Below are positions 2,752 through 39,552 of a stretch of 64,000 nucleotides of DNA, piece by piece. Made by a program: the position numbers and the translations under genes. This stretch comes from Patescibacteria group bacterium (lineage in GTDB: Bacteria > Patescibacteriota > Patescibacteriia > Buchananbacterales > UBA6539), in the NCBI GenBank assembly GCA_034003985.1, contig JAVEXP010000001.1:155347-219346 (forward strand), in the 5' to 3' direction. Each line of letters starts with the position of its first letter. Positions within the stretch are counted from its first letter, which is position 1. The notes beneath the pieces were generated by a model, which saw only the letters and a list, made by a program, of their open reading frames with translations, ran no database searches and had not been told where the DNA came from.

Positions 2752-2794
2752 GCGGCCCAATTGGCCGAGTGGGCAGAAACGACTGTTGGACGAA

Positions 2795-2830
2795 GCGGAA
2801 ACCTACTTTACGGGTTTCCGTCTTTTTTTA
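2795..2830 (+). terminator. Intrinsic terminator: cggaaacc-tactttac-gggtttccg followed by T8.
   Basis: Stem-loop followed by tctttttttat. Confidence 0.6.
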
Positions 2831-2849
2831 TTCATGCTATAAAAAGATC

Positions 2850-3302
2850 ATGAATTTAAATGACAATTACCGTCAAAGTAACCGCATTACTTCAGTTAAA
2901 GTTGAGGTTGGCGACTTGGCAATCAAATTAACGAATGATTTGCTGGCTTGTGTTGAGACTAATCAGCGCCAAAATTTGGGAGAACAATTATTGGATGAGC
3001 TTTGTGACAGCGCCAAAATCGATATTGTCAAACTGAAAATATCAGACACCAGGCAATATCATAAACGGCGCGGCCGCCGGATTGTTTTCAAGCAATATGG
3101 CTATTATCGCGATAAATACATTTATATTCAAAACCGGACCCCGGCGCGCGGCCAGCTAGTGGCGCCGAAAACTTTTTTGGACACCCTGTTGCACGAATGG
3201 TTGCATCATTATGATACTTACGCCTTGGGACTTAATTCCATTCATACTAAGGGATTTTATGAGCGGTTGAAAGATCTTAGAAATCGTTTGAGGGTTACCT
3301 GA
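2850..3302 (+). CDS. Hypothetical protein with an HExxH motif (LLHEWLHHYD), possibly a zinc-dependent hydrolase.
   Basis: The track ORF 2769-3302 overlaps the upstream terminator, so I chose the internal ATG at 2850. AT-rich host-like composition. Confidence 0.45.
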   Translation: MNLNDNYRQSNRITSVKVEVGDLAIKLTNDLLACVETNQRQNLGEQLLDELCDSAKIDIVKLKISDTRQYHKRRGRRIVFKQYGYYRDKYIYIQNRTPARGQLVAPKTFLDTLLHEWLHHYDTYALGLNSIHTKGFYERLKDLRNRLRVT

Positions 3303-3337: not shown

Positions 3338-4351
3338 TTGTGGTATAATTCAAAAGAAATGACCACTAAAAAATTGCATCAATTCATTGAATATCTGAGT
3401 CAGCAAAATTTGGTTTGGGCGCCTCAGAAACAAAATGGCCAGCTGGTCATTTCTCAAGTCAGCAGTCCTGAAGAGGTCGTTTTAACTAATGAGTTGCCAT
3501 TGCATTCGTTTAAAAAAATATTGGTGCCGCCGCAGGAGGCGCTTTTTAGTTATCAAAGAGGCAGAATCAAGGCTAAAATCGAGTCTCCTTATCAGGTGAT
3601 TTTTGGTTTAACCGTGCCGGATTTGAAGGCCGTAATATATTTGGATCAGGTGTTTGCCAAGGATCCTTACTATCAGGCTCGGCGCAAAAAAACTTTAATC
3701 GTCGGTCATAGCTTGGTGCCGGAAGCGGATTATCAATTTTTCATTGAGAAGTTCAGTGAAGATATTTTAGAGCATTTGAAGTTTGATATTTTTTTGGCCA
3801 TTCAGAAAAACCAGAAAAATTTTATCGTTTATACCGGATCAGAAGACGGTCAGCGGATTTTGGATGATTTTGGCTATAAATTATACGAACACATTGAATA
3901 TGTCGGGCCAATCAAAGAAGAGGGTCCCGACAAACAGATGCTGGAGATTAGAAGAAAGTTTTATGATAATCCGAAAATTTGGCAGGATTTGGCCCAGCGC
4001 TGTATTGAGTGCGGAAAGTGCAGTCTGGTTTGCCCGACTTGTTTTTGTCATGACCTTATTGACCAACCGGAGCTGGGTGAGGGTAACGGCACCAGAAATC
4101 GGCAATGGACCGCTTGCTTTTACGCTAATTTTTCCGCCGTGGCCGGTCGTGAATTGGGTAGCGGCAAGCCAAAATTTTTAAATAATACGGAGCAACGGAT
4201 CAGGTTTTGGTATGAACATAAATTTGTCAGGTCGGTTGACGAATTTGGCATTTCTGGCTGTGTCGGCTGCGGGCGCTGTACCAAAGTCTGTCCGGTGGCA
4301 ATTGACATTAAAAAAACTTTACAAAAAATTTTAAAAGGTGAAATTGAATGA
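3338..4351 (+). CDS. [NiFe] hydrogenase group-3b-like beta subunit (sulfhydrogenase HydB-like), a 4Fe-4S dicluster protein.
   Basis: Two ferredoxin-type Cys motifs (CIECGKCSLVCPTC and CVGCGRCTKVCP). The stop overlaps the start of the gamma subunit (ATGA). Confidence 0.7.
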   Translation: MWYNSKEMTTKKLHQFIEYLSQQNLVWAPQKQNGQLVISQVSSPEEVVLTNELPLHSFKKILVPPQEALFSYQRGRIKAKIESPYQVIFGLTVPDLKAVIYLDQVFAKDPYYQARRKKTLIVGHSLVPEADYQFFIEKFSEDILEHLKFDIFLAIQKNQKNFIVYTGSEDGQRILDDFGYKLYEHIEYVGPIKEEGPDKQMLEIRRKFYDNPKIWQDLAQRCIECGKCSLVCPTCFCHDLIDQPELGEGNGTRNRQWTACFYANFSAVAGRELGSGKPKFLNNTEQRIRFWYEHKFVRSVDEFGISGCVGCGRCTKVCPVAIDIKKTLQKILKGEIE

Positions 4352-5166
4352 TTAATCCGTATTTGCCAAAATTTGTTAAGATTAAGGCAATCCGAACGGA
4401 AACTTCCGACACCAAACTTTTTACTTTTGAGTTTGTTGACGCCAAAGATCGTCGTAATTTTTCTTTTGAACACGGTCAATTTATGATGGCTGGTATGCTT
4501 GGTGAGGGCGAAGCGGCTTTTGATATTTGTTCTTCCCGGGCGGATTTACAAAAATTTGATTTGGCGATTCGCCAAGTCGGGAGATTGACTGCCAAATTGC
4601 ATCAGCTGAAAGTTGGAGATCAAATAACAATCCGTGGGCCGTTTGGCAATGGTTTGCCTTTAAATAACTTCAAGAATCGCGATTTATTATTAATTGGCGG
4701 CGGCTGTGGTTTTATCACCATGAGATCGTTTGCTTTGGATTACTTAGCGGGAAAATTGGATATTGGTAAATTGAATATATTTTACGGTTGCGCCAATGAA
4801 GAACGCTTGCTTTTTAAAAAAGAATATAAAAGCTGGCGCAAAAAGGTTGGCTTGGAAATCGCCTTGGACAAGCCGTCAAAAAATTGGCAAGGTAAAATGG
4901 GGACAATTACTTCTTTGTTTAATTCCAGCCAAGATTTTACTGGTGCCGTGGCATTGATGGTTGGACCGCCGGCGATGTATAAATTTGTAATTGAAGAATT
5001 GCAGGACAGAGGTATTAAAGACGAGGACATTTATTTGTCATTGGAGCGCCGAATGTATTGTGGTATTGGAGTCTGTCAGCACTGCGCCATTGGCCCGTAC
5101 TATGTTTGTAAAGACGGCCCGGTTTTTTCTTGGGCGCAGCTGCGGGGAATTCCTAACGCCATTTAG
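4348..5166 (+). CDS. Hydrogenase gamma subunit: a PyrK-like FAD/NAD(P)-binding oxidoreductase with a C-terminal 2Fe-2S site (sulfhydrogenase HydG-like).
   Basis: FNR-like fold motifs (GDQITIRGPFG and LIGGGCG). C-terminal C-x4-C-x2-C...C cluster motif (CGIGVCQHCAIGPYYVC). Confidence 0.75.
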   Translation: MINPYLPKFVKIKAIRTETSDTKLFTFEFVDAKDRRNFSFEHGQFMMAGMLGEGEAAFDICSSRADLQKFDLAIRQVGRLTAKLHQLKVGDQITIRGPFGNGLPLNNFKNRDLLLIGGGCGFITMRSFALDYLAGKLDIGKLNIFYGCANEERLLFKKEYKSWRKKVGLEIALDKPSKNWQGKMGTITSLFNSSQDFTGAVALMVGPPAMYKFVIEELQDRGIKDEDIYLSLERRMYCGIGVCQHCAIGPYYVCKDGPVFSWAQLRGIPNAI

Positions 5167-5169
5167 CCT

Positions 5170-5694
5170 ATGGTGGTTTCAACAAAACAGCCAAAAAAAG
5201 TAAAAGTCAACGATAAAATGCAACAGGGATATGTTTATGAATTAACCGTCAGTGAAGGTAAAAATTTTCATCCGGAATTTAAGCCGGAATTAACGCCTAA
5301 ACAGATGCTGGAATTGGGAGTATTTGGCGGTAAATATTTGAATGATTGCCAAAAAGAATTTCCCAAATCCTGGTTTAAGCGGGCGAAACTGGCCAAACGC
5401 CATAAAAATCTTTCCTTGAATTATTTTAAAGTTGATGCGTCATTGCCGTTGAAGGAGTGGCAGCGTAAAGGCTGGATTTATAAAGACGATCCCCGCGGGT
5501 GGTTTCAATGGTATTGCCGTTATTATCTGGGCAGAAGATTGGATCAAGAAGATTGGCGGCAAATTAAGCGCTGGAAAGCAATTAGGCGCCATATCGGGGC
5601 GATTAAGAATAATTGTTTTCAAGGCGATTTAAACTGTCGGGCGCGCCAACGCCAGGCATTATTGCACTGGGCGTATGACAGCCGAAGGATATAA
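5170..5694 (+). CDS. Conserved hypothetical basic protein with Trp/Arg-rich motifs (GWFQWYCRYYLGRR, RWKAIRRH).
   Basis: 174 aa ORF, tightly packed within the hydrogenase gene array. No recognisable catalytic motif. Confidence 0.45.
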   Translation: MVVSTKQPKKVKVNDKMQQGYVYELTVSEGKNFHPEFKPELTPKQMLELGVFGGKYLNDCQKEFPKSWFKRAKLAKRHKNLSLNYFKVDASLPLKEWQRKGWIYKDDPRGWFQWYCRYYLGRRLDQEDWRQIKRWKAIRRHIGAIKNNCFQGDLNCRARQRQALLHWAYDSRRI

Positions 5695-5710: not shown

Positions 5711-6103
5711 ATGAAACCTAAAATATTTATCATTTTCATTATGCCGGTTCTGACTTTGATTTTGGTTGGTTGCAGTTTTAAAGAAGAATACGCCATGCAA
5801 TATACAATTGTTGACCAGGCTGGTATTGAAACTAAAGTAACAGCGACTGATGATGGCGTTAAATTGGAGATTCCTTTTGCTGATTTTACTTGCGATATTA
5901 AAAGCGTTAAGGCAACGCTTGAAAGAAATGAAAGTATTTTTTCGGTTTTTATCCAGGGTAATGAAACCCCAGCGCGCTGTAGCCAAAAATTTAGCGCCGA
6001 TATTAATGGGGTTTCGCCCGGAAGTTATCAACTTAAAGTTTATTATCAGCGAGGGGAAGAAAAGCAAGTAGTTTTAGTTGAAGATTTTCAGGTAACCCAA
6101 TAA
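5711..6103 (+). CDS. Hypothetical lipoprotein.
   Basis: N-terminal signal peptide with a lipobox (LILVGC). Confidence 0.5.
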   Translation: MKPKIFIIFIMPVLTLILVGCSFKEEYAMQYTIVDQAGIETKVTATDDGVKLEIPFADFTCDIKSVKATLERNESIFSVFIQGNETPARCSQKFSADINGVSPGSYQLKVYYQRGEEKQVVLVEDFQVTQ

Positions 6104-6315: not shown

Positions 6316-7269
6316 ATGGAAACTAAAACAAAATTATTTAATTTTGAGCGACAGCGGATTGGAATAATATTGGTATTGCTAACCGCCTTAATTTCCGGTG
6401 TGGCTAATTTTTTCAATAAATTTGCCATGCAAATTCTAGCCAAAGATGCTTTTCAATATACTGCTTTGAAAAATATAGTAGTGGCCTTGGGTTTGAGTTT
6501 AATTTTATTGTCACCATTGGTGTTGGGGAAATTAAAAAAAATTCAAAAAACTGACTGGCTTAAATTAATCATCATTGGCTTAATTGGCGGCGGTATTCCG
6601 TTTTTGTTGTTTTTTAAAGGTTTGAGCTTAACCAGCGCGGTCAGCGCCAGTTTTATACACAAAACTTTATTTGCGTGGGTTGCTATTTTAGCCTGGCCAG
6701 TCTTGAAAGAAAAAATAGGTAAATGGCAATTTCTGGCTTTGGGGCTGCTGCTGATTGGCAATTTTGTTTTTTTGGATTTTCGAAATTTGCGCTGGGGAGT
6801 CGCTGAAACCATGATTTTAATTGCCACCATTATGTGGGCGATGGAAACAATCGTTGTTAAGGCTACTTTAGCAAAAGTCGAACCAATAGTGGCGGCCTGG
6901 GCGAGGATGTTTTTTGGCTCAATATTTTTGTTTGGCTGGTTAATAATGACTAATAATGTCACTGGTTTGGGACAATTAGATTTAGACCAATTAAGCTGGC
7001 TAGTGGGCGTAGGCGTGTTGCTGTTGGGCTATGTAATTACTTGGTATAGCGGATTGAAACGATTATCCGCCCTAACAACCGCCAGTATTTTGGTTTTAGC
7101 TTCACCAATTACGACATTATTAAATTCAATATTTGTCAGTCATAGTTTCTCGGTTCAGAATTTTTGGAGCAGTTTGATTATTGCCTTCGGTGTTTCGGGC
7201 TTCATCGCCTTGGGATTTAAACAAAACAGTAAATCCAGTTATCAAATATTAGAAAACAGTAAATCGTGA
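6316..7269 (+). CDS. EamA/DMT-superfamily membrane transporter.
   Basis: About 10 predicted transmembrane helices, with the two-repeat architecture typical of EamA. Confidence 0.6.
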   Translation: METKTKLFNFERQRIGIILVLLTALISGVANFFNKFAMQILAKDAFQYTALKNIVVALGLSLILLSPLVLGKLKKIQKTDWLKLIIIGLIGGGIPFLLFFKGLSLTSAVSASFIHKTLFAWVAILAWPVLKEKIGKWQFLALGLLLIGNFVFLDFRNLRWGVAETMILIATIMWAMETIVVKATLAKVEPIVAAWARMFFGSIFLFGWLIMTNNVTGLGQLDLDQLSWLVGVGVLLLGYVITWYSGLKRLSALTTASILVLASPITTLLNSIFVSHSFSVQNFWSSLIIAFGVSGFIALGFKQNSKSSYQILENSKS

Positions 7270-8081
7270 TGTTGTTAAACGACCAAAAATTGGCCGGGGC
7301 TTTACTGGCGGCGCGCTATGCCTTTATGCCTAACCGTTTGAAATATTGCGGACCGGATAATAATGCGGAATTGTTTGGTTATCTTGCCAATCAAACCGCT
7401 GATTTGGGTTTAAAGGAGATGCTCCAGGAATTTCAAACAATGTTTCCTTATTTAAAGTTGATTGCCGAAGCAAACCATATTGCCGATCCGTTCAACTATC
7501 GGGTGGTTGAAGCTTATTGGATTGGTAATGAACTATTGGAGAAAGTCAGGATACAAAATTTTTATCGTTATCTGGTTGATGGCCAGCAATTGAAGAAAAA
7601 GTTTAAATTAAGTTCTTTGGAAAAACTTTTTGGCAAGATTCCTTTGGGCGCCAAGCCGCACCACAGTTTTCATGTTTTAAATGTTCCGAAGCGAACCGGG
7701 TATTATCCGGTTGAACATACTTTAAAAACCATCAACGCTTGTATTATCACGCCGGCGAAAATCAAGCGCTTGAATCTTGAATCATGTTCGGCTGAAGGTC
7801 GGGTTAAAAAAATCAAAGAGCAACGAAATATTTTAAAAAAGATTATGGTTGAAGCCAGGCCATTGGTGGCTGAGGGTAATTGCCTGGAAATCGGTGAAGC
7901 CAGGGAGCAGGAAGTTTTTGTTGAATCTAATAATCAGGCCTTGGTCAAAGGATTTAAAGTTGGTGATGATGTGGCATTGCATTGGAATTGGGTTTGTGAT
8001 TTATTGACGCCAAGCCAGGCTGAAAATTTGTTGAAGTGGAATAATTATAATTTAAAATTGCTTAATCTGAATTATGCCTAA
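7266..8081 (+). CDS. Hypothetical protein, translationally coupled to the hydrogenase small subunit. Possibly a hydrogenase accessory protein.
   Basis: 271 aa. Its start overlaps the EamA stop and its end overlaps the start of the delta subunit. No known motif recognised. Confidence 0.45.
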   Translation: MMLLNDQKLAGALLAARYAFMPNRLKYCGPDNNAELFGYLANQTADLGLKEMLQEFQTMFPYLKLIAEANHIADPFNYRVVEAYWIGNELLEKVRIQNFYRYLVDGQQLKKKFKLSSLEKLFGKIPLGAKPHHSFHVLNVPKRTGYYPVEHTLKTINACIITPAKIKRLNLESCSAEGRVKKIKEQRNILKKIMVEARPLVAEGNCLEIGEAREQEVFVESNNQALVKGFKVGDDVALHWNWVCDLLTPSQAENLLKWNNYNLKLLNLNYA

Positions 8082-8898
8082 AAAAATTAAAAAACCAAGG
8101 GTGGCAATCGTTGGACTAACTTGTTGCGAGGGCTGTGAATTTGCAATTTTGGATTTGGGTCAGAGGTTTTTGGAACTAGCCAAGTATGTTGAGTTAGTCG
8201 AGTTTCGGATGATAAAAGACGATCCGCCAAAACCCGGACCTTATGATATCTGTTTTGTGGAAGGTTCGGCAGTAACCAAAAAGAATGTTGAGATTTTAAA
8301 AGAACTGCGGCGGGTGTCCAAAAAGCTGATTGTGCTAGGCAACTGCGCTCATACCGGCGGAATTCATCGGATGAAGAATTGGATTGGACGAGTTCAGGCA
8401 TTGGGGCAAGTATACGATAAGCCCCGGGGGATTGATAACCCGCCGATTGTACCGATTGCCGAAATTGTCAAAGTGGATTTTACCATCCCGGCTTGTCCGA
8501 TTAACGCCGAAGAATTTTTAATTATTGTAAAACAATTGTTGGCCGGGCGGGAGCCGTTTATTCCCCAAAATCCGGTTTGTTTCGAATGCCAGATTAACGG
8601 TTATGAGTGTTTGCTACAGCAAGGCGAACTTTGTTGCGGGCCAATCACTTTGGGCGGTTGCCAGGCTGTTTGTCTAAAAAGCAAACAGCCATGCTGGGGT
8701 TGCCGAGGTTTACTTGAAGAACCGGATGTTGATAAGTTTGTCCGTAATTGTTTTTTGACCGGTCATACTATTGAAGAAATTGAAAAAGTTTTGGAGGTGT
8801 TTGGAGTTAAAGATGACTGGATTGATCAGGCCAAACAAGAATGGCAATCGCTTCAAAAATCAAAAGCCTTAATTAAGATAACCGGGAAAGAAAAATAA
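8074..8898 (+). CDS. [NiFe] hydrogenase small subunit, group 3 (delta/HydD-like).
   Basis: Proximal FeS cluster motif VAIVGLTCCEGCEF, GNCAHTGG, and further C-rich motifs (CFECQINGYEC and CQAVC). Confidence 0.8.
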   Translation: MPKKIKKPRVAIVGLTCCEGCEFAILDLGQRFLELAKYVELVEFRMIKDDPPKPGPYDICFVEGSAVTKKNVEILKELRRVSKKLIVLGNCAHTGGIHRMKNWIGRVQALGQVYDKPRGIDNPPIVPIAEIVKVDFTIPACPINAEEFLIIVKQLLAGREPFIPQNPVCFECQINGYECLLQQGELCCGPITLGGCQAVCLKSKQPCWGCRGLLEEPDVDKFVRNCFLTGHTIEEIEKVLEVFGVKDDWIDQAKQEWQSLQKSKALIKITGKEK

Positions 8899-8906
8899 TT
8901 AAAATT

Positions 8907-9512
8907 ATGGAATGTTCAAAATGTAAAACTAACAATGATGACAAATCAAAGGTTTGTCGAATTTGCGGCGCTGATTTAACGATGGTGCCGGCCGCAATTG
9001 ATTTCAAGGCGGGAACTGAATCAAGCTCGGCGGCGGAAAAATATCAAGGGTTGGGTGGGTGGCTAATACTGGTAGGGCTAGGTTTAATTAGCGCTCCCTT
9101 AATGATTGGCTGGGCGTTGTATCAAGATTTTTTGCCGCTGGTTTTGGAGTCCCAGGTCTGGCAGACTTTAACTTCTCCAGGCAGTCTGATTTACAGTTCA
9201 TTGTGGAAGCCAACCTTAATGATGGAGGTAACCGTTAACATTATATTTTTTGTTTGGACAATATATCTGCTGGTTTTATTTTTCAGGAAGAGCGCGCATT
9301 TTCCTAAATTGTATATAATTTTTTTGGCGGTGAATTTATTATTTTTAATGATCGACGATATTTTACTTTTTCAGATCAGGCGCCAATTACCGATTCTGGG
9401 TCAGACTGTTGGTGAACAAAAATTTAGTTCATTGTCAGCGGTTTTGCCAACAGTTATTTGGATACCATATATGCTGAATTCCAAAAGAGTAAAACAAACT
9501 TTTGTTAATTAA
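8907..9512 (+). CDS. Membrane protein with an N-terminal zinc ribbon (CxxC...CxxC) and 4-5 transmembrane helices.
   Basis: MECSKCKT...VCRICGADL followed by hydrophobic helices. Sits between the small and large hydrogenase subunit genes. Confidence 0.5.
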   Translation: MECSKCKTNNDDKSKVCRICGADLTMVPAAIDFKAGTESSSAAEKYQGLGGWLILVGLGLISAPLMIGWALYQDFLPLVLESQVWQTLTSPGSLIYSSLWKPTLMMEVTVNIIFFVWTIYLLVLFFRKSAHFPKLYIIFLAVNLLFLMIDDILLFQIRRQLPILGQTVGEQKFSSLSAVLPTVIWIPYMLNSKRVKQTFVN

Positions 9513-9518
9513 TCATTT

Positions 9519-10805
9519 ATGAAGATTAGAATTGATCATTTGGAAAAAATGGAGGGTCACCTGGATTTTGTCGGTGATATTTTGGCTGGTGATGTCGCCA
9601 GCGCCAAAATAAAAACGACGGAAGGAATCAGGCTGATTGAGAGTATTTTGGTTGGTCGCAAGTATTATGACGCGCCAATCATTACGGCCAGAATTTGCGG
9701 GATTTGTCCGGTAGTTCATTCGTTGAATATGATTAAGACAGTCGAAAATGCTTTTGGCATTAAACCCAGTCAGCAGACTATTAAATTGCGGAAACTAATG
9801 GAGTTCTCACAAGTCATTCACAGCCATGCTTTACATTTGTATTTTTTGTCGATGCCGGATTTTTACGGAGTAAGAGATGATATTGACTTTATTAAACAAA
9901 ATCCAACCCAAGCCTCGGCGGCTATCAAAATTAGGGAATTTGCTTTGAAGATTTTGGAGGTGGTAGCCGGTCGGGCTATTCATCCAATTGCCTGCGAAGT
10001 CGGCGGCTTTAAAATTTTGCCCAGCCAGGAACAACTTAAAGAATTGTTGAGGAATTATAAAGAAACAATGGTCGCCGCGATGGAATTGATGGTGTTTGCG
10101 GCCAGATTGCCCTTGCCGCAGTTTGAACGCCGGATGGAATTTGCCAGTTTGTATTCGCCGGATGAATATGCGATTTATGACGGTCGGATAAAATTTTTGG
10201 ACGGCAAGATTATTAAGTCCAGTAAGTATGCCAAGGTAATAGATGAATATCAGTTGCTGGCGTCAGCAGCGAAGCGAGCAAATTATCAAGGTAAAAGCTA
10301 TATGGTAGGCGCTTTGGCCAGGCTTAATATTAATCATGACAAGTTGAGCAAGGAAGCCGCCGCCGTAGTTAAAGATTTAAAATTGAAATTTCCAATTTAT
10401 AATACCTTTGCCAATGTTTTGGCCCAAGCGATTGAAGTGGTTCATGCTATGCAAGAAGCCGGTAATTTACTGAGTGATTTGGCCGATAATTTGAAATTTG
10501 AAGAAAGCCGGGGCCATAATTTGGCTTTGATTGCCGATGCTAATCCCCAAGGTAGAGTTACGGTTGGCTATTCGGTAATGGAAGCGCCGCGGGGGATATT
10601 ATATGACATGGTAGAAATAAATGCCGATGGAGTAATCACTAGATCGGATATCATTACGCCGACCGTTCAATATTTAAACAATATCGAGGAGGATTTAAAA
10701 GTTTATTTGCCCAATTTAAAACAGTTATCAGACCGCCAGCGGCGGCAAAAAATTAAGACTTTAATCAGAGCTTACGATCCTTGTATTTCGTGTGCTACCC
10801 ATTAA
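9519..10805 (+). CDS. [NiFe] hydrogenase large subunit, group 3. It ends exactly at the DPCxxCxxH motif with no C-terminal extension.
   Basis: N-terminal L1 motif RICGICPVVHSL. C-terminal L2 motif DPCISCATH is immediately followed by a stop. Confidence 0.9.
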   Translation: MKIRIDHLEKMEGHLDFVGDILAGDVASAKIKTTEGIRLIESILVGRKYYDAPIITARICGICPVVHSLNMIKTVENAFGIKPSQQTIKLRKLMEFSQVIHSHALHLYFLSMPDFYGVRDDIDFIKQNPTQASAAIKIREFALKILEVVAGRAIHPIACEVGGFKILPSQEQLKELLRNYKETMVAAMELMVFAARLPLPQFERRMEFASLYSPDEYAIYDGRIKFLDGKIIKSSKYAKVIDEYQLLASAAKRANYQGKSYMVGALARLNINHDKLSKEAAAVVKDLKLKFPIYNTFANVLAQAIEVVHAMQEAGNLLSDLADNLKFEESRGHNLALIADANPQGRVTVGYSVMEAPRGILYDMVEINADGVITRSDIITPTVQYLNNIEEDLKVYLPNLKQLSDRQRRQKIKTLIRAYDPCISCATH

Positions 10806-12039
10806 TATGATTGATAATCTATTCTTTTTGATTATTTTAATTCTAGTTTCCGCTTTTTTCTCCGCTTCGGAAATCGCGATTTTTTCTTTGTCGCAAGCTA
10901 AAATAAAATCCTTAGAGAAAAAGAAAGTCCGTAACGCCAAGCAACTGGCGGCTTTGCGCGCTAAACCTCAGCGGTTATTAATTAATATTTTGATTGGCAA
11001 TAATTTGGTTAATATCGGTGCCTCGTCGATGGCGGCCGTGATCGCCTGGCAAATTTTTGGCAATATCGGTCCGGCGATTGCCACTGCTGTTTTAACGATT
11101 TTAATTTTGGTTTTTGGTGAAATTGGTCCCAAGACTTTGGCTTCGGCCAATGCCGAAAGGTTTTCTTTGGCAATCGCGCCGATTTTAACTTTGATTGATA
11201 TTATTTTTCGCCCGGTTTCCATTTGGTTTGAGTTTTTTAACAAACTGGCAATTAAATATCTGGCCGGCGGCCGGGCTCGACCGTCAATGACCGAAGAGGA
11301 ATTGACTGCTTTGGCCGAAATCGGCGCGGAAGAAGGAGTGGTTGAACCAAAAGAAAAAGAAATGATTAAACGGATTTTGGAATTCAATGATATTAATGCT
11401 GAGGATGTAATGAGGGTTAGGAGTGATATTTTTGCCTTGCCTCAGAATTTAACACTGAGACAGGCTTTGTCTGAAATTAATGAAGCTCATTATTCCCGCG
11501 TGCCAATTTTTGAGAGAACTATCGACAATATTACGGGGGTGATTTACCTGCCAGACATTCTTCGAGAATTGACCGCCGGTAATGATGATTTGCCAATTTT
11601 GAAGATTTCTCGCAAACCTTATTTTATTCCATTACAAAGGAAAATCGATGACATTTTTAAGGATTTTCAGCGCCGCCACAATCATATTGCAATCGTTCTG
11701 GACGGCCAGGGCAATACCGCCGGACTGGTGACTTTGGAGGATTTGTTAGAAGAGATTGTCGGGGAAATTATGGATGAGTCTGATGTGGACGAATCATTGA
11801 TAAAGCGAATTGACAAGAAAGCAATTTTGGTTGATGCTCAAACAGAAATTAGAAATATTAATAATTTTTTCAATATCAATATCCCCGGCCAGCCTCATGA
11901 CTTTGTGGCCGAAGCTTTTCTGGAAAAATTTGGACGAATTCCCAAACCGGGGGACGAGGCTTTGTTTGAAAATTTTAAAATGGTAATTGAAAAAGCGACT
12001 AAGAAAAAAATTGAAAAGATAAGAATAATTAAATTTTAA
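10792..12039 (+). CDS. HlyC/CorC (CNNM) family transporter-associated protein: DUF21 membrane domain, CBS pair and CorC_HlyC domain.
   Basis: 4-TM N-terminus with a conserved GExxPK motif, CBS domains, and a C-terminal transporter-associated domain. Confidence 0.8.
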   Translation: MLPINMIDNLFFLIILILVSAFFSASEIAIFSLSQAKIKSLEKKKVRNAKQLAALRAKPQRLLINILIGNNLVNIGASSMAAVIAWQIFGNIGPAIATAVLTILILVFGEIGPKTLASANAERFSLAIAPILTLIDIIFRPVSIWFEFFNKLAIKYLAGGRARPSMTEEELTALAEIGAEEGVVEPKEKEMIKRILEFNDINAEDVMRVRSDIFALPQNLTLRQALSEINEAHYSRVPIFERTIDNITGVIYLPDILRELTAGNDDLPILKISRKPYFIPLQRKIDDIFKDFQRRHNHIAIVLDGQGNTAGLVTLEDLLEEIVGEIMDESDVDESLIKRIDKKAILVDAQTEIRNINNFFNINIPGQPHDFVAEAFLEKFGRIPKPGDEALFENFKMVIEKATKKKIEKIRIIKF

Positions 12040-13355: not shown

Positions 13356-14585
13356 ATGAATCTAAAATCAATCAAATCGGTTAAAAATTTGAAAGGCAAA
13401 ACCGTAATGTTGAGGGTGGCTTACGATGTCCCATTGAAGAAACAAGGCAAGGGCTGGGCGGTGGCCGATGATCGTCGAATTGCCGAAACTTTGCCAACTA
13501 TTAAATATTTGCTGCAGCAACATTGCAAGATTGTAATTTTATCTTGGCTGAAGCGGCCTGGTGGTGAAGTGGTTGATAAATATCGCCTGGATCCGGTGGC
13601 TAAAAATCTTGGGATATTATTAAAGAAACCGGTTAAAAAGTTGGATGACTGCGTTGGTCCGAAGGTTTATCAGGAAATCAAAAATTTGAAAAACGGCGAA
13701 ATTTTAATGTTGGAGAATGTTAGATTTTATCCCGAAGAAGAAGCGGCCAACAAGATGTTTGGGGCTTTGTTGGTTCATGGCATTGACCTGATTGTTTTTG
13801 ACGCTTTTGCCCAAGCTCATCGGATTCACTCTTCCACGACGGTGATTACCAAGCTATTGCCAACTTATTCCGGGTTTTTGTTGGAAAAAGAATTGAAAGC
13901 TTTGGGTCAAATTAATAAAAGCCCAAAACGGCCGTTGGTAGTAATTTTGGGCGGGGCAAAAATATCAGACAAGATCGATGTTTTGCAGGAGTTGTTGAAA
14001 ATAGCTGACAAAGTTTTAATCGGCGGCGGGATGGCCAATGTTTTTATGAAGGCTAGCGGGATAGCGGTTGGTTCATCTTTTTTGGAAGATATTTTTGTTG
14101 ACAAAGCCAAAAGAAAAAAAGTTAATACCATTAAATTGGCCAGAAAACTTTTGAAAAAATACCGGACGAAAATCGTTTTGCCTGTTGATTTCGTGGCGGC
14201 TAATAAAATTGACCAAAATGCCTTGGTCGAAGTCGTTGATTTAGAAGAGTGCCAACACATTAATTCCCGTTGGAAATTCTTGGATATTGGACCAAAATCA
14301 GTGGCTAACTTTATGGTAGAAATCAAAGCGGCCAAAACGATTTTTTGGAACGGCCCCATGGGTGTGTTTGAAATAGAAAAATTTGCATTTGGCACCAAAA
14401 AAATCGCCCAGGCTGTCGGTCGTAGCAAGGCCATTAGTGTGGTTGGCGGGGGGGATACAGAAGCGGTGATTGGTAAATACAAATTAGAAAAAAAAATCAG
14501 TCATGTTTCGACTGGCGGCGGAGCTAGTTTGGAATTTTTAAGCGGCCGAACTTTGCCGGCATTAAAAAATGTAATTAAAAAATAA
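13356..14585 (+). CDS. pgk: Phosphoglycerate kinase.
   Basis: LKGKTVMLRVAYDVPL at the N-terminus, GGGMANVF, and a Gly-rich C-terminal ATP-binding motif. Confidence 0.9.
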   Translation: MNLKSIKSVKNLKGKTVMLRVAYDVPLKKQGKGWAVADDRRIAETLPTIKYLLQQHCKIVILSWLKRPGGEVVDKYRLDPVAKNLGILLKKPVKKLDDCVGPKVYQEIKNLKNGEILMLENVRFYPEEEAANKMFGALLVHGIDLIVFDAFAQAHRIHSSTTVITKLLPTYSGFLLEKELKALGQINKSPKRPLVVILGGAKISDKIDVLQELLKIADKVLIGGGMANVFMKASGIAVGSSFLEDIFVDKAKRKKVNTIKLARKLLKKYRTKIVLPVDFVAANKIDQNALVEVVDLEECQHINSRWKFLDIGPKSVANFMVEIKAAKTIFWNGPMGVFEIEKFAFGTKKIAQAVGRSKAISVVGGGDTEAVIGKYKLEKKISHVSTGGGASLEFLSGRTLPALKNVIKK

Positions 14586-14595
14586 CAATAAAATT

Positions 14596-15384
14596 ATGGA
14601 AATGCCCATCACTAATGCTAAATCCAATCTCCCAAAACAAATTCTGTTGTTGTTGATAAGTATCCTGGTGGTAATGTTGGTAATAATGTTAGCAGTGATT
14701 ATCAGAAATCAATGGCGAGCATTCGACTATATTGGTCGCAGCGATGAAAGGATATACACCATCACCATCCAGGGTGAAGGAAAGGTAACAGCTATTCCCG
14801 ATATTGCTCAGGTTAGCTTAGGGGTTCAAGCTGAAAAAATAAAAGTTGAGGATGCTCAGCGGGAGAATACCCAAAAAATGAACGACATTATTGCCGCGCT
14901 TAAGGGTCTGAATGTTGAACAAAAGGATATTAAAACTACCAATTATAACATCAGTCCAAAATATGATTGGAATAATGGTACTAGGATCTTACGCGGGTAC
15001 ATTGTCAGTCAGAATGTTACGGTAAAAATCAGAGATTTAGATCGAATTGGCGATATTTTAGACAAAGCGGCCGATTTGGGAGCCAATCAAGTTGGGGGGT
15101 TGAATTTTACGATTGATGAGCCGGAAGTGTTGCGCCAGGAAGCCAGAGAAAAAGCTTTGGCCAGCGCCAAGGCCAAGGCTGAGAGCCTGGCCAAAGTTGC
15201 CGAAGTAAAATTGGGCAAATTAGTTTCCTTTAATGAAAGTGGCGATAATTATGATTATCCTTACTACTTGGAATCACAGGCCATGATGATGGATTCATTG
15301 AAAGTTGCCGAGGAGACTACGACAATTGAGCCCGGCAGTCAGGATATTACGGTTAATGTAACAGTCACTTACGAAGTATTATAA
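14596..15384 (+). CDS. SIMPL-domain (DUF541) protein with an N-terminal membrane anchor.
   Basis: SIMPL-family pattern (GxxQVGGLNF and the KAKA helix region). One N-terminal TM segment. Confidence 0.7.
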   Translation: MEMPITNAKSNLPKQILLLLISILVVMLVIMLAVIIRNQWRAFDYIGRSDERIYTITIQGEGKVTAIPDIAQVSLGVQAEKIKVEDAQRENTQKMNDIIAALKGLNVEQKDIKTTNYNISPKYDWNNGTRILRGYIVSQNVTVKIRDLDRIGDILDKAADLGANQVGGLNFTIDEPEVLRQEAREKALASAKAKAESLAKVAEVKLGKLVSFNESGDNYDYPYYLESQAMMMDSLKVAEETTTIEPGSQDITVNVTVTYEVL

Positions 15385-15394
15385 AATATAATTT

Positions 15395-16660
15395 ATGTCA
15401 AAATATAAAATTAAATCAGTTTCGGCTTTAGAGATTTTAGATTCCCGCGGTAATCCGACGGTTAGGGTCAAGATTACTCTTAATAATAGTATTGGCGCCA
15501 GCACATCGGTGCCATCCGGCGCATCAACAGGCATTCACGAAGCCTTGGAATTACGCGACGGCGACAAGGCTCGCTATGGGGGCAAGGGCGTAATCAAAGC
15601 AGTTGATAACATTAACAAAAAAATCGCGCCAAGGTTAATCGGCCAAGATCCGACCAGTCAACGGCAATTAGATGAGCTGATGATTAAGTTAGACGGTACT
15701 AAAAATAAATCGAAATTGGGAGCTAATGCCATCTTAGGAGCATCTTTGGCTTTAGCCCATGTTTCATCAGCAGCTTTGGGCAAGCCATTGTATCAATATT
15801 TGCGTCAGACTTTTCGTTTGCCCTACCGGACTTGGCAGCTGCCGATTCCGACTATGAATATTTTGAATGGCGGCGCTCATGCCGACTGGTCGCTTGATAT
15901 TCAGGAATTTATGATTGTGCCGCGGCAAAAAACTATGGCCCAGCGGATTCGCTGCGGCGCCGAGACATTTCATGAGTTGGCAAAGATTATTAAGTCAATG
16001 GGATATGAAACCCTTAAAGGTGATGAAGGAGGATACGCCCCAAAGCTCAAAGGCAACGAGCAGGCTTTTACGGTTATTATAAAAGCCATTGAAGCCGCCG
16101 GTTATCGGGCTGGTCGGGATGTGAGTTTGGCGATTGATGCCGCCGCTTCGGAATTTTATAATTCCCAAACAAAACTTTATGAGCTTAGGGCGGATCAAAA
16201 GAAAGTGATGGCACAGCAGCTGATTGATTTGGAAGAAAAGTGGCTGGCAAAGTATCCGATTATCTCAATTGAAGACGGTTTGGATCAGGATGATTGGGAA
16301 AATTGGGAAACACTGACCAAACGGATTGGCAAAAAAGTCAGCTTGGTGGGAGATGATTTGTTTGTTACTAATGTCGAGAGGTTAAAGGAAGGAATCGATC
16401 GGAAAGTTGGTAACGCGATTTTAATCAAGCTTAATCAGATTGGTACTCTTTCGGAGACAATTGATGCCATTGAATTGGCTCATCGGCATGGTTATAAAAC
16501 CTCAATATCTCACCGTTCCGGGGAAACTGGCGATACCACTATTGCCGATTTGGCCGTGGCTGTCAACTCGGAATTTATTAAAACCGGTTCATTGTCGAGA
16601 AGTGAAAGGGTGGAAAAATATAACCGCCTGCTCGAAATTGAACAAGAATTAAAAAAATAA
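15395..16660 (+). CDS. eno: Enolase.
   Basis: Enolase N-terminal signature (EILDSRGNPTV), SIEDGLDQDDWE and the LIKLNQIGTLSET signature. Confidence 0.95.
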   Translation: MSKYKIKSVSALEILDSRGNPTVRVKITLNNSIGASTSVPSGASTGIHEALELRDGDKARYGGKGVIKAVDNINKKIAPRLIGQDPTSQRQLDELMIKLDGTKNKSKLGANAILGASLALAHVSSAALGKPLYQYLRQTFRLPYRTWQLPIPTMNILNGGAHADWSLDIQEFMIVPRQKTMAQRIRCGAETFHELAKIIKSMGYETLKGDEGGYAPKLKGNEQAFTVIIKAIEAAGYRAGRDVSLAIDAAASEFYNSQTKLYELRADQKKVMAQQLIDLEEKWLAKYPIISIEDGLDQDDWENWETLTKRIGKKVSLVGDDLFVTNVERLKEGIDRKVGNAILIKLNQIGTLSETIDAIELAHRHGYKTSISHRSGETGDTTIADLAVAVNSEFIKTGSLSRSERVEKYNRLLEIEQELKK

Positions 16661-18241
16661 ATGCCTAATCATAAAAAAAATAATACCCATAAGCCGTTAG
16701 TATTTCTGATCCTTGACGGCTGGGGGATTGCTCCAAAGAGCCCGGCTAACGCCATTGAACTTGCCAAAAAACCAAATTTTGATTATTTGTGGAACAACTA
16801 TTCCCATACCAAACTTCAAGCATCGGGAAAATATGTCGGTTTACCCGATGATCAGCCTGGCAATTCCGAAGCCGGTCATATGAATATCGGCGCGGGGCGG
16901 GTGGTTGAACAGGATTCGGTGACGATTTCCAAGGCCATTAATACCGGAAAATTTTTTAAGAATCCGGCGTTTGAGGCCGCTTGTACTCATCTTCGGAAGA
17001 ATAAATCGAATTTGCATATTATGGGAATGCTTTCTGATGGTCAAAGCGCTCACAGCGACCCCGATCATTTATTGGCGCTGATTGCCTGGGCGCGAATGAA
17101 AAAAATCAGAAATGTTTATTTACATTTGTTTACTGACGGTCGTGATTCGCCGCCACATTCAGCACTGAAATCAGTCGAGGCCTTGATGCGACAGTTGAAA
17201 AATAAGGAGCAGGGCAGTCAGCGCAGCGGCGAGTGGATTGCCACAATCATGGGGCGATTTTACGCAATGGATCGGAAAAAGGCTTGGCCCCGGACGGAGC
17301 GGGCTTATCAGGCGATGGTTTTGGCCAGGGGCATTGGTGCCAAGAGTCCTCAGGCGGCAATTACCCAGTCTTATAATCGGGGCGAGACGGATGAATTTAT
17401 TCCGCCCTATGTCATGAAACGGGGAGGCAAACCAATCGCCAAAATCAAAGACGGCGACGCAATTTTATTTTTTAATTTACGGAGCGATCGGGCGCGCCAG
17501 TTAGCCAAACCGTTTGTCCAGCAAAATTTTACCGAAGACAATTCCAACAGCTTCAAGCGCCAGAAGGTTTTAAAAAATATTGTCTTTGTGGCCATGACCG
17601 ATTTCGGTCCTGATCTTGATTCGATTTTAACGGCTTTCCCATCTGATGATATCGTCGGCACTTTACCGATGGCATTAGCCGGCTATAAGCAGCTTTATAT
17701 TTCCGAAAAAGAAAAATACGCCCATGTAACTTATTTTATTAACGGCGGTTATCCTGATCCGGTGGCCGGTGAGAACAGAATATCAAAACCATCGCCGGAA
17801 GTGGCATCTTATGATCAAAAACCGGAAATGAGTGTTTATCAAGTGACTGCTGAAGTTTTGCGAGATTTGGATAAATATGATTTTATCGCCATTAATTTTG
17901 CCAATCCTGATATGGTTGGCCATACTGGGAACATTAAAGCGGCGATCAAAGCCGTTGAAGCCTGTGACAAGTGTTTGGGTAAAATAAAAGACAAAGTTCT
18001 ATCGCGTCGGGGGATATTGGTGATTACGGCTGATCACGGTAATGCCGATAAGATGCTGGACTTGGAAACCGCTGAAATGTATACTGAACATACTACCAAT
18101 CCGGTGCCTTTTATTATCGTTGAGCCAAAAAAAATTAGTCGGCGCTTGAAAAGAGGAAAATTGGGTGATATCGCGCCGACCATTTTAAAATTAATGAAAG
18201 TCAAAAAACCTAAACAAATGACTGGTAAACCTTTGTTTTAA
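16661..18241 (+). CDS. gpmI: 2,3-bisphosphoglycerate-independent phosphoglycerate mutase (iPGM), copy 1.
   Basis: LVFLILDGWGIAP, MGRFYAMDRKKAW, NFANPDMVGHTG and ITADHGNAD motifs. Confidence 0.9.
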   Translation: MPNHKKNNTHKPLVFLILDGWGIAPKSPANAIELAKKPNFDYLWNNYSHTKLQASGKYVGLPDDQPGNSEAGHMNIGAGRVVEQDSVTISKAINTGKFFKNPAFEAACTHLRKNKSNLHIMGMLSDGQSAHSDPDHLLALIAWARMKKIRNVYLHLFTDGRDSPPHSALKSVEALMRQLKNKEQGSQRSGEWIATIMGRFYAMDRKKAWPRTERAYQAMVLARGIGAKSPQAAITQSYNRGETDEFIPPYVMKRGGKPIAKIKDGDAILFFNLRSDRARQLAKPFVQQNFTEDNSNSFKRQKVLKNIVFVAMTDFGPDLDSILTAFPSDDIVGTLPMALAGYKQLYISEKEKYAHVTYFINGGYPDPVAGENRISKPSPEVASYDQKPEMSVYQVTAEVLRDLDKYDFIAINFANPDMVGHTGNIKAAIKAVEACDKCLGKIKDKVLSRRGILVITADHGNADKMLDLETAEMYTEHTTNPVPFIIVEPKKISRRLKRGKLGDIAPTILKLMKVKKPKQMTGKPLF

Positions 18242-18242
18242 T

Positions 18243-19829
18243 ATGGCTAATCAACAGATAAAACCGATAATGCTATTGATTCTCGACGGTTTTGGTGTTG
18301 CCCCGCCAAGTAATAGTAACGCGGTTTCTTTAGGTAAGAAACCGGTTTTGGATTATTTTATTGCCAATTATCCGACTTTGACATTGCAGGCATCGGGCGA
18401 AGCGGTTGGGTTGTCTTGGGGAGAAATGGGTAATTCGGAGGTCTGTCATCTTAATTTGGGTTCGGGGCAGATAATTTATCAGACTTTGCCGAAAATCAAC
18501 AAGTCAATTGAAGACGGGACGATCAAAAAAAATGATAAACTATTGAAAGCAATCGACCACGCCAAAAAAAATAAGTCAAAGCTTCATTTGATGGGGTTGG
18601 TGTCAAACGGCGGGGTACATTCTCATCATGATCATCTATATGCTTTATTGGAAATGTGCAAGGAACGGGGAGCCGGTGAAGTCTATATTCACGCTTTTTT
18701 GGACGGCCGCGACACGGCCAAAGACGGTGCCAAGGAATTTATCAAGTCGCTTCAAGCCAAGTTGACTGAAATGAAGTTTGGTCAAATTGCCAGCTTGAGC
18801 GGACGATATTATGCTATGGATCGCGATAATAATTGGGAGCGAGAAGAAAAAGCTTACCGGGCGATTGCTTTGGGGGATTCACCGGCCAAGTTTGATGATC
18901 CGGTCAAAGCGATTGAAACCTCATATGGTAATCAGGTGTTTGATGAGGAATTTATTCCGGCGGTGATTACCCGCGGCGGCAAGCCGGTGGCAACAGTCAA
19001 CGATAATGACGCGATGATATTTTTTAATTTTCGGGCTGATCGAGCCAGACAGTTGGCCGCGGTGTTTGCGGTTCCAGGATTTGATAAATTCGCCAAGCCG
19101 GCAGTCAAAAATTTTCAACTAACTACCTTTACTGAATACGAAAAGGATCTGCCGGTTGATGTAGCTTATCCCGATGAAGACATTCAGCTGCCACTGGCAA
19201 AACTTTTTTCGAATTTGAAACTAAAACAGCTCCATGCGGCCGAAACGGAAAAATACGCCCATGTTACTTTTTTCTTCAATGGTCGCAAAGAAGACCCGTT
19301 TGAAGGTGAGGATCGGATTTTGGTGCCGTCTCCGGCGGTTTCCAGTTATGATCAAAAACCGGAAATGAGCGTTAACGAATTAACGGCTAAGCTCCTTAAA
19401 GCAATTAAAACTAATCAGCATCATTTATATATTGTTAATTTTGCCAACCCGGATATGGTCGGACATACTGGCGTAATCCCCGCAGCTGTCAAGGCCGTTC
19501 AAGCCGTTGATAAAGCCATCGGCCAGCTTTGGGATGCTATGTCACAAGTCGGAGGAACGCTGATGATTACGGCCGACCACGGCAATTGCGACGAAATGAT
19601 TAATCTTCAAACGGGAGAAGTTTCCAAAGAACATAGCACTAACCCGGTGCCTTTTATTGTGGTTGGTGAACAATGGAAAGGCAAGAGCTTGGTTTCGGGG
19701 TTGGATAGTGCTAACGGTGATTTGAGTGTTTTGACGCCCTCGGGAATTTTGGCTGATATTTCGCCGACCATTCTAAAACTATTAGAGATTGACCAACCCT
19801 CGGACATGACCGGCAGTCCGCTGGTTTAA
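18243..19829 (+). CDS. gpmI: 2,3-bisphosphoglycerate-independent phosphoglycerate mutase (iPGM), copy 2. A tandem paralog.
   Basis: IMLLILDGFGVAP, SGRYYAMDRDNNW, NFANPDMVGHTG and ITADHGNCD motifs. Diverged from copy 1. Confidence 0.9.
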   Translation: MANQQIKPIMLLILDGFGVAPPSNSNAVSLGKKPVLDYFIANYPTLTLQASGEAVGLSWGEMGNSEVCHLNLGSGQIIYQTLPKINKSIEDGTIKKNDKLLKAIDHAKKNKSKLHLMGLVSNGGVHSHHDHLYALLEMCKERGAGEVYIHAFLDGRDTAKDGAKEFIKSLQAKLTEMKFGQIASLSGRYYAMDRDNNWEREEKAYRAIALGDSPAKFDDPVKAIETSYGNQVFDEEFIPAVITRGGKPVATVNDNDAMIFFNFRADRARQLAAVFAVPGFDKFAKPAVKNFQLTTFTEYEKDLPVDVAYPDEDIQLPLAKLFSNLKLKQLHAAETEKYAHVTFFFNGRKEDPFEGEDRILVPSPAVSSYDQKPEMSVNELTAKLLKAIKTNQHHLYIVNFANPDMVGHTGVIPAAVKAVQAVDKAIGQLWDAMSQVGGTLMITADHGNCDEMINLQTGEVSKEHSTNPVPFIVVGEQWKGKSLVSGLDSANGDLSVLTPSGILADISPTILKLLEIDQPSDMTGSPLV

Positions 19830-39371: not shown

Positions 39372-39552
39372 CTTGTGTGCTTAACACGGGTTTCTGTTTT
39401 TACGGCTTTTTAAATTACCACATTTAAGTAAAAAAGTCAATATTGTATATTTTATAATTGACTTTTTTGTTGTATTATGATATTAATAAGAGTTGTCCTT
39501 TTAATTGGGTATAAGTGAATCCAACCGTGCTAAACACGAAAGGGTTAGGGCT

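Follow-up and report, generated by a model that had tools for sequence, protein, structure and literature searches.

A group 3b-type [NiFe]-hydrogenase large subunit of Patescibacteria encoded without a C-terminal extension

The C-terminal peptide of ordinary [NiFe]-hydrogenase large subunits is thought to prevent the apo-subunit from closing before it has received first the Fe(CN)2CO moiety and then nickel; a nickel-sensing endopeptidase of the HybD/HycI/HoxW family takes the peptide off, after which the new C-terminus can fold in and the small subunit can dock. In this process, chaperones of the HypC type bring Fe(CN)2CO to the apo-subunit and HypA and HypB bring nickel; once loaded with nickel, the precursor is recognised by an endopeptidase and cleaved behind the His or Arg of the C-terminal metal-binding motif, and the terminus formed in this way closes the site (PMC6769069, PMC7294309, PMC12134894). 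Sensor, Ech and CooH subunits are naturally tail-less and are matured by the Hyp machinery (PMC7294309, PMC6769069). The naturally extension-less groups have been named as 2b, 2d, 4c, 4e and 4g (PMC7294309) or as 'sensory and Ech' (PMC6769069), and group 3b is not on either of these published lists. Here we describe a hydrogenase locus of an uncultivated, ultra-small bacterium, in a 64,000-nucleotide stretch of Patescibacteria DNA (contig JAVEXP010000001.1, positions 155,347 to 219,346; referred to as the window), in which the large-subunit gene of a group 3b-type enzyme stops at the motif His.

The closest described enzymes are two archetypes of group 3b, sulfhydrogenase I (SHI) of Pyrococcus furiosus (large subunit HydA) and Hyh of Thermococcus kodakarensis (large subunit HyhL). 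They share with the window locus the beta-gamma-delta-alpha subunit set and both Cys motifs of the large subunit, and they are its best full-length matches (E 1e-57). In the PDB, the alpha chain of P. furiosus SHI and the cytosolic HyhL of T. kodakarensis aligned with residues 2-428 of the window protein at E 1e-57 to 4e-55, against 6e-41 for Mvh and 1e-35 for SH. The large subunit matched Pfam NiFeSe_Hases (PF00374) at 4.6e-38, and its best NCBIfam models were those of the sulfhydrogenase II/I alpha subunits (ShyA 7.9e-71, HydA 9.1e-66), with FrhA (4.9e-42), VhuA (2.9e-39) and the group 1 models far behind. Both metal-binding motifs of [NiFe] large subunits, RxCGxCxxxH and DPCxxCxxH/R, are present with their four Cys ligands.

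Genes for the alpha, beta, gamma and delta subunits all lie at 3338-5166 and 8074-10805, with about 2.9 kb of other genes between beta/gamma and delta/alpha (Table 1); the true start of the beta subunit is probably an ATG about 7 codons inside its open reading frame (ORF). Judged by its nearest NCBIfam and PDB matches and by this subunit set, the enzyme is a predicted cytoplasmic, four-subunit, NAD(P)-linked hydrogenase of the sulfhydrogenase type, that is, of group 3b. The scores are far under the NCBIfam equivalog cut-offs (ShyA 239 bits vs 700, HydA 223 vs 880), so the window protein is a distant relative of the archaeal enzyme and not the same one. On these profile matches we place it in a distant subgroup of group 3b, outside the equivalog of Pyrococcus ShyA/HydA.

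The locus can also be assigned by shared features to the 'hyd1' clade described for the Candidate Phyla Radiation (CPR; PMC7304191). Both are of Patescibacteria origin, have a small subunit of about 250-274 aa and not of about 164 aa, carry beta and gamma genes nearby that are not always adjacent, and include a HypC-like gene in their context. The paper in which this clade was described (Jaffe et al. 2020) is silent on the C-terminus, the protease, DUF6390, a short HypA and a HypC-HydE fusion.

Read directly from the window sequence, the large subunit ends in ...RAYDPCISCATH, with TAA right behind (3′ end of the gene: GCT TAC GAT CCT TGT ATT TCG TGT GCT ACC CAT TAA TAT GAT TGA). No residue follows His428, the place where a canonical precursor carries the peptide that a HybD/HycI/HoxW endopeptidase removes, and the gene resembles those of the extension-less class in stopping at the motif His, a property kept across its lineage. 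The earlier note on this DNA had placed a stop directly behind DPCxxCxxH, which is what we found. The region 10800-10810 was checked for a frameshift or sequencing error and contains none: the second stop, the frame of the next gene, the homologues and 17 independent loci agree. Read-through of the TAA would add 2 residues at most. The gene for a CNNM/CorC protein opens with an ATG at 10807, 1 nt past the stop and in another frame, so no frameshift can supply an extension. Since the stop is TAA and TGA works as a stop in the window (in 17 of its 73 ORFs), recoding, selenocysteine and read-through can be set aside.

The same terminus was observed in the homologues. Among the 120 best, 118 were C-terminally complete, and all 118 end exactly at DPCI[SA]CATH (50-100% identity). 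Every named match in this set comes from Patescibacteria, Buchananbacteria or Parcubacteria, and the identical one (100%) is the NCBI entry 'MAG: Ni/Fe hydrogenase subunit alpha [Patescibacteria group bacterium]' (MAG, metagenome-assembled genome). At the DNA level, the His codon is followed directly by a stop in 17 independent loci, both CPR and non-CPR. TAA, TAG and TGA are all used there, the sequences differ synonymously before the stop and are unrelated after it, and the FLxVxF-like peptide of tailed relatives is absent from any downstream frame continuation in these loci. The tail-less terminus is real and conserved, far beyond chance or error.

The source is a metagenome-assembled contig, and errors are possible in principle, so that a sequencing or assembly error, a frameshift or a premature stop might have shortened a normal precursor gene. 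The likelihood of this is negligible, however, in view of the common last residue in 118 of 118 homologues from independent assemblies, the synonymous changes, differing stop codons and lack of downstream extension-like sequence in the 17 loci, the second in-frame stop 2 codons on and the next gene starting 1 nt past the first. Frameshift, read-through and recoding were rejected as causes of the missing tail on the basis of the TAA, the second stop, the frame of the next gene and the 17 loci.

The archaeal precursors carry 4 residues past the His, whereas the window protein has none. These 4-residue tails are cut by a protease of the HybD/HycI type. In the structures of SHI and HyhL, the 428-residue chains align only to residue 424, and the motif His is the last residue of the chains that are 424 and 419 residues long. 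The mature chain of P. furiosus SHI alpha, 9e1j_B, ends at the homologous His, and the 428-aa chains 9nez_D and 5yxy_A have 4 residues more. The window protein is thus co-linear with the processed archaeal form, because its end aligns with the last residue of the mature chain. The NCBIfam models ShyA and HydA likewise have 4 positions past the His, and of the 68 group 3b loci from GTDB genomes that have a tail, 63 have one of 7-9 residues. These lengths do not bear out the extension of 15-30 residues that the earlier note had taken as its yardstick. The right baseline is the 4-9 residue tail of group 3b, and the peptide that has been lost was shorter than 10 residues.

To see how far the tail-less state is spread, we searched 1.84 billion cluster representatives exhaustively and without a profile. 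Among the 150 relatives listed (31-46% identity), the motif was recognisable in 130; 40 of these end at the His, and most others carry 4-14 residues after it. In a neighbour-joining tree of 139 sequences, 49 were tail-less. They formed two pure clades, of 21 and 20 sequences, and 7 small lineages, one a pair and the other six singletons. The window protein, other CPR hyd1 sequences and one Korarchaeota sequence fall in the clade of 21; the clade of 20 is characterised by the motif DPCITCSVH, and a CPR-like 'MAG: bacterium' is among its members. By the Fitch criterion at least 8 tail-state changes are needed, a count that is only indicative, the tree being rough, midpoint-rooted and without bootstrap. 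A single origin of the tail-less state was not supported, given the two pure clades, the 7 further lineages and this minimum of 8.

Named tail-less members include Thermoleophilia, Korarchaeota and Archaeoglobi, and a length of 416 aa is shared by 17 of the 18 members of the Archaeoglobi cluster. In the GTDB genomes, 12 loci out of 80 were tail-less. They belong to Komeilibacteria, Moraniibacteriota (2 loci), Saccharibacteria, an unclassified bacterium, Nitrospira/Nitrospirae (3), Thermodesulfovibrionales, Desulfobulbales, Dehalococcoidales and Archaeoglobales. Thus, the tail-less state is a recurrent minority in group 3b, found in about 15-35% of sampled relatives and in several phyla, and is no rarity. 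The idea that the trait is limited to Ech/Coo-type and sensory hydrogenases does not survive these counts (12 of 80 loci, 49 of 139 representatives).

Five distant tail-less relatives (P0126, P0137, P0210, P0249 and P0265) have a degenerate C-terminal motif, either D-L-C... or with K or Q in place of the His. They are possible examples of a loss of normal metal binding.

We next asked about the protease. A HybD/HycI profile was built from E. coli HybD (1cfz), 5ttx and T. kodakarensis HybD (5ija) and run, with filters off, against the 648 stop-to-stop pieces from all six frames of the window; the best E-values, 1.7-6.7, were noise. The same profile picks up divergent protease domains fused to the C-terminus of relatives at 5e-12 (P0267), 3e-9 (P0256) and 3e-5 (P0231), so the null result can be trusted. 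Additionally, 41 ORFs of the window were scanned with Pfam and NCBIfam, and no HycI (PF01750), HypB, HypD, HypE or HypF turned up. The unannotated ORFs around the operon, at 2769-3302, 5170-5694, 5711-6103 and 1297-1737, were considered as a hidden or divergent endopeptidase and rejected, as none matched Pfam, NCBIfam or the HybD profile. The locus has no endopeptidase gene, as had been claimed before, and this extends to every frame of the window.

The fused domains just mentioned belong to large subunits of 600-626 aa (P0231, P0256 and P0267), in which a normal tail (FLxLxxER...) is followed by an endopeptidase domain of the HybD/HoxW type (E 3e-5 to 5e-12). Substrate and protease are here on one polypeptide.

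In the flanks of up to 10 kb around tail-less genes, PF01750 was not found in any of ten loci (L001-L010), which represent 8 distinct neighbourhoods, 7 CPR or CPR-like and that of a Thermoleophilia. The nearest tailed representatives, P0142 and P0139, are on contigs of 2-3.6 kb and were uninformative; a scan of the 80 GTDB loci was used in their place. A protease was present in the flanks of 49 of the 68 tailed loci vs 0 of the 12 tail-less ones, and in 45 of those 49 it lies no more than 600 nt downstream of the large-subunit gene. When loci with less than 1.5 kb of sequence downstream were set aside, the contrast was 44 of 59 vs 0 of 10 (Fisher p = 9.6e-6). Tail and protease gene have been lost together across the group 3b relatives.

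Such a joint loss is what protease-independent maturation predicts and so supports it. We therefore consider it likely that the large subunit is 'born processed', that is, made at its mature length and matured without proteolysis. The earlier note had arrived at protease-independent maturation too, as a trait of a few lineages only. The first part gains support, by inference, from the joint loss of tail and protease (0 of 12 vs 49 of 68); the second does not hold.

We infer the order and the agents of cofactor insertion as follows. The proteolytic checkpoint would have been lost along with the protease gene. The HypC of the locus, through its Cys2, would hold the apo-subunit and deliver the iron moiety, and the short HypA-like protein, with an N-terminal MHD nickel site, would deliver nickel. 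Closure around His428 might then occur spontaneously or upon release of the chaperone, and the enzyme should be catalytically competent. This scheme agrees with what is seen in the sensor (HoxC/HupV), Ech and CooH subunits, which have no extension by nature. Like the window protein, the sensors (2b/2d), CooH (4c), Ech (4e) and group 4g subunits end at the motif His or Arg and have no cognate endopeptidase, and chaperones are presumed to be enough (PMC7294309, PMC6769069). They differ from it in their hydrogenase group, partners and physiology.

Engineered subunits offer another comparison. HoxG-proc of the Ralstonia eutropha MBH, which was made to end at the His, gains its cofactor, less efficiently, and supports growth (PMC7294309). 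The tail is thus not chemically essential. HoxG-proc, HybC-proc of E. coli and the truncated HoxH of the R. eutropha SH are all, like the window protein, synthesised ending at the His. They are artificial, and the Hyd-2 and SH versions end without nickel or cofactor, whereas the CPR protein is natural and has presumably adapted to doing without the tail.

Several observations weigh against maturation without proteolysis. The truncated large subunits of E. coli Hyd-2 and the R. eutropha SH fail to gain the cofactor (PMC7294309), so the absence of a tail is not automatically compatible with maturation. HypB, HypD, HypE and HypF were not found by profile scans in the window or in any related flank. 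Moreover, the protease search covered 64 kb of a 331,630-bp contig, and 19 of the 68 tailed loci also have no protease nearby. Local absence by itself is therefore weak evidence, and the strength of the argument lies in the contrast of 0 of 12 with 49 of 68.

These last two points also bear on the possibility that the enzyme still needs a HybD/HycI-type protein coded elsewhere, acting as a non-cleaving chaperone or proof-reader or cutting at another site. The 64 kb searched are a part of the genome (this contig alone has about 267 kb more), and the 19 tailed loci without a protease within 10 kb indicate that proteases can be unlinked. Yet there is no substrate peptide past the His, a nearby protease was absent from all 12 tail-less loci and present at 49 of the 68 tailed ones, and none was seen in the CPR neighbourhoods examined. 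A typical CPR genome has about 1 Mb and usually one hydrogenase. The maturation literature that we searched establishes no non-cleaving role for these proteases. We regard this alternative as improbable.

A missing tail could also mean lost maturation, if the protein were a hydrogenase-like relic without the NiFe cofactor, as are the group 4-related Ehr proteins of CPR. HypB, HypD, HypE and HypF, as said, were seen in no flank, and CPR Ehr proteins have lost their metal-binding cysteines (PMC7304191). In the window protein, on the contrary, the metal ligands are intact. R58, C60, C63, D420, P421, C422, C425 and H428 are invariant in an alignment of 34 sequences (32-75% identity), and so are Glu12 and the arginine of the PRG motif in the catalytic site. 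By its residues, the large subunit shows no sign of a decayed enzyme. The four Cys ligands and the terminal His are kept down to 32% identity, HypC and the HypA-like gene are retained in every locus, and the full beta-gamma-delta-alpha set is conserved. Real decay looks different, as in the distant relatives with DLC... or ...AVK/AVQ motifs. A relic is thus a very slight possibility.

Protease-free maturation, which remains our preferred reading, could nevertheless proceed by a route of its own, and the accessory genes of these loci are worth considering in this respect. The HypA-like protein begins with MHD(L/F)H, contains no cysteine and aligns with HypA profiles only over their N-terminal part, which binds nickel, and hence lacks the zinc-finger domain. 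Its gene, coding for 84-86 aa, is conserved in all CPR loci, directly downstream of that for the large subunit (e.g. L001 11389-11643 and L004 11865-12122). Short HypA-like pieces were also seen in Omnitrophota and WOR-1 loci.

The DUF6390 family has 3,228 matches, the top ones all CPR, and its invariant residues are C27, H132, H135, C158, H238 and C243. The AlphaFold model (pLDDT 82, pTM 0.83) consists of a helical N-domain, predicted to be a novel fold, and a C-terminal OB barrel with a helix. The stretch '...NAC158-IITPAKIK' resembles the HypC start 'MC-LTKPAKIK'. DUF6390 may be an unrecognised hydrogenase maturation factor, and we propose it as a candidate.

In the sister CPR loci L003-L005 and L008, a HypC-radical-SAM/BATS fusion of 416-421 aa replaces the separate HypC and DUF6390. 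The radical-SAM part of the L004 and L008 fusions is over the NCBIfam equivalog cut-off for HydE, the [FeFe]-hydrogenase maturase (267 and 266 vs 254.6 bits). HypC-HydE-like fusions were found inside or beside group 3b operons in CPR and several other phyla, and similar HypC-radical-SAM ORFs also accompany group 3b loci that have a tail, in genomes of Scalindua, WOR-1, Omnitrophota, Nitrospirae and Gammaproteobacteria. Taken together, the short HypA, DUF6390 and the fusions suggest, without proving it, that maturation in these lineages departs in part from the textbook Hyp pathway.

One version of such a departure is a non-canonical, protease-free maturation in which the iron-ligand chemistry is carried out by factors of the locus (DUF6390, or the fusion of HypC with HydE-like radical-SAM protein) instead of HypD, HypE and HypF. 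In its favour, DUF6390 is encoded in the operon and is translationally coupled to the small-subunit gene; it combines six invariant Cys/His residues with a HypC-like OB domain, in which Cys158 stands before the first strand like Cys2 of HypC. In the CPR loci fetched, it is present where HypC is separate and absent where HypC is fused to the radical-SAM protein, and both occupy the same part of the operon, before the small-subunit gene. The HydE score of 267 vs 254.6 bits and the lack of HypD, HypE and HypF in the flanks fit as well. We give this route a minor chance. With similar reserve we suggest a stripped-down, partly non-canonical pathway in CPR and some other anaerobes, of which the missing tail could be one sign. 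It might do without the protease, use a zinc-less HypA of 86 aa and leave the Fe(CN)2CO chemistry to HypC-type modules of the operon (HypC with DUF6390, or HypC fused to a HydE-like radical-SAM enzyme) instead of or beside HypD, HypE and HypF.

No description of DUF6390, the short HypA or the HypC-HydE fusion as maturation features was found in the literature searched, nor was any prior account of a tail-less group 3b hydrogenase or of CPR hydrogenase maturation; only the general lists of extension-less groups came up. The papers on CPR hydrogenases (PMC7304191, PMC10811913) do not comment on the C-terminus. The case is thus undocumented but easily rationalised, and it is a modest surprise, because the group 3b tail is short and its loss recurrent. 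The accessory genes (DUF6390, the zinc-less HypA and the HypC-HydE fusions) are a more intriguing lead than the missing tail.

With these data, group 3b joins the hydrogenase groups that have naturally tail-less large subunits, for which recent reviews list only 2b, 2d, 4c, 4e and 4g. The repeated joint loss of tail and protease (at least about 8 times on the rough tree) supports the view of the peptide as dispensable quality control and not a chemical necessity. Heterologous production of tail-less enzymes should need one accessory gene fewer, and for CPR biology the finding underlines the streamlining of their only H2-handling enzyme. DUF6390, the short HypA and the HypC-HydE fusions are concrete candidates for unknown steps of [NiFe] cofactor assembly. 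If the radical-SAM fusion does supply a diatomic ligand, this would be relevant to the unsolved question of where the CO ligand comes from when oxygen is absent.

Table 1. Features of the hydrogenase locus in the window; the last row gives positions in related loci.
Feature	Coordinates	Strand	Remarks
Beta (FeS, AsrA-like) subunit	3338..4351	+	Pfam Fer4_22 4.4e-27; NCBIfam ShyB 4.3e-37, AsrA 3.7e-34
Gamma (FAD/NAD(P)-binding, AsrB-like) subunit	4348..5166	+	Pfam NAD_binding_1, FAD_binding_6, DHODB_Fe-S_bind; NCBIfam hydrogenase gamma 5.2e-66, ShyC 3.8e-56
HypC/HupF-type chaperone, 67 aa	6109..6312	+	Start MCLTVP, essential Cys2 present; Pfam HupF_HypC 3.2e-16; TIGR00074 48.1 bits vs cut-off 48
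EamA transporter	6316-7269	+	
DUF6390 protein, predicted helical N-domain and HypC-like OB domain	7266..8081	+	Overlaps end of EamA gene and start of small-subunit gene
Hydrogenase small (delta) subunit, 274 aa	8074..8898	+	Pfam Oxidored_q6 2.8e-21; NCBIfam ShyD 5e-43, HydD 1.7e-36
Zn-ribbon and DUF2569 membrane protein, between small- and large-subunit genes	8907..9512	+	Lineage-specific
[NiFe]-hydrogenase large (alpha, HyhL/HydA-like) subunit, group 3b type	9519..10805	+	428 aa; last residue is the His of the C-terminal metal-binding motif
N-terminal metal-binding motif R-I-C-G-I-C-P-V-V-H	9690..9719	+	Residues 58-67; Cys60, Cys63
C-terminal metal-binding motif D-P-C-I-S-C-A-T-H	10776..10802	+	Residues 420-428; Cys422, Cys425, His428
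TAA (10803-10805), TAT GAT, second in-frame stop TGA (10812-10814)	10803..10814	+	Direct reading
CNNM/CorC-type divalent-cation transporter	10807..12039	+	Pfam CNNM 4e-51, CBS, CorC_HlyC; absent from this slot in sister loci
Short HypA-like nickel chaperone, 86 aa	12041..12301	+	Pfam HypA 3.9e-08 (profile positions 1-69 of 112 only); NCBIfam HypA 2.4e-09
HypC-HydE-like fusion ORFs	L004 7936-9201; L008 6828-8078		Also in L003, L005, L017, L022, L030, L035, L037, L050, L065

Membrane-protein genes (EamA, Zn-ribbon with DUF2569, and CNNM/CorC) are interleaved with the hydrogenase genes, and the last two are absent from the corresponding slots of sister loci. Between the small- and large-subunit genes, other loci have unrelated ORFs of 81-84 aa. 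The operon region of L001 includes a CbiM Ni/Co transporter. In the window, two ORFs of 174-177 aa on the + strand (2769-3302 and 5170-5694) flank the beta and gamma genes; they have no Pfam or NCBIfam match and are not endopeptidase-like.

Straight downstream of the hydrogenase and HypA genes, positions 13356-19829 (+) hold the genes for PGK, a SIMPL protein, enolase and two tandem iPGM paralogues (526 and 528 aa). The order PGK-SIMPL-enolase-iPGM-iPGM is the same in L001-L008, in all CPR loci examined, and links lower glycolysis physically to the NAD(P)-coupled hydrogenase.

A tRNA scan and an Rfam search at gathering threshold found nothing in the window. Up to about 52 kb, the + strand carries nearly all of the window's genes. 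A GC-rich island at 38139-40530 (about 0.51, compared with 0.34-0.46 per 1 kb on either side) contains a gene for an outer-membrane beta-barrel protein of the FadL/TodX family (38139-39371, minus strand, Pfam Toluene_X 7e-44) and a methyltransferase gene. Such an island is odd for Patescibacteria and suggests horizontal acquisition or mis-assembly.

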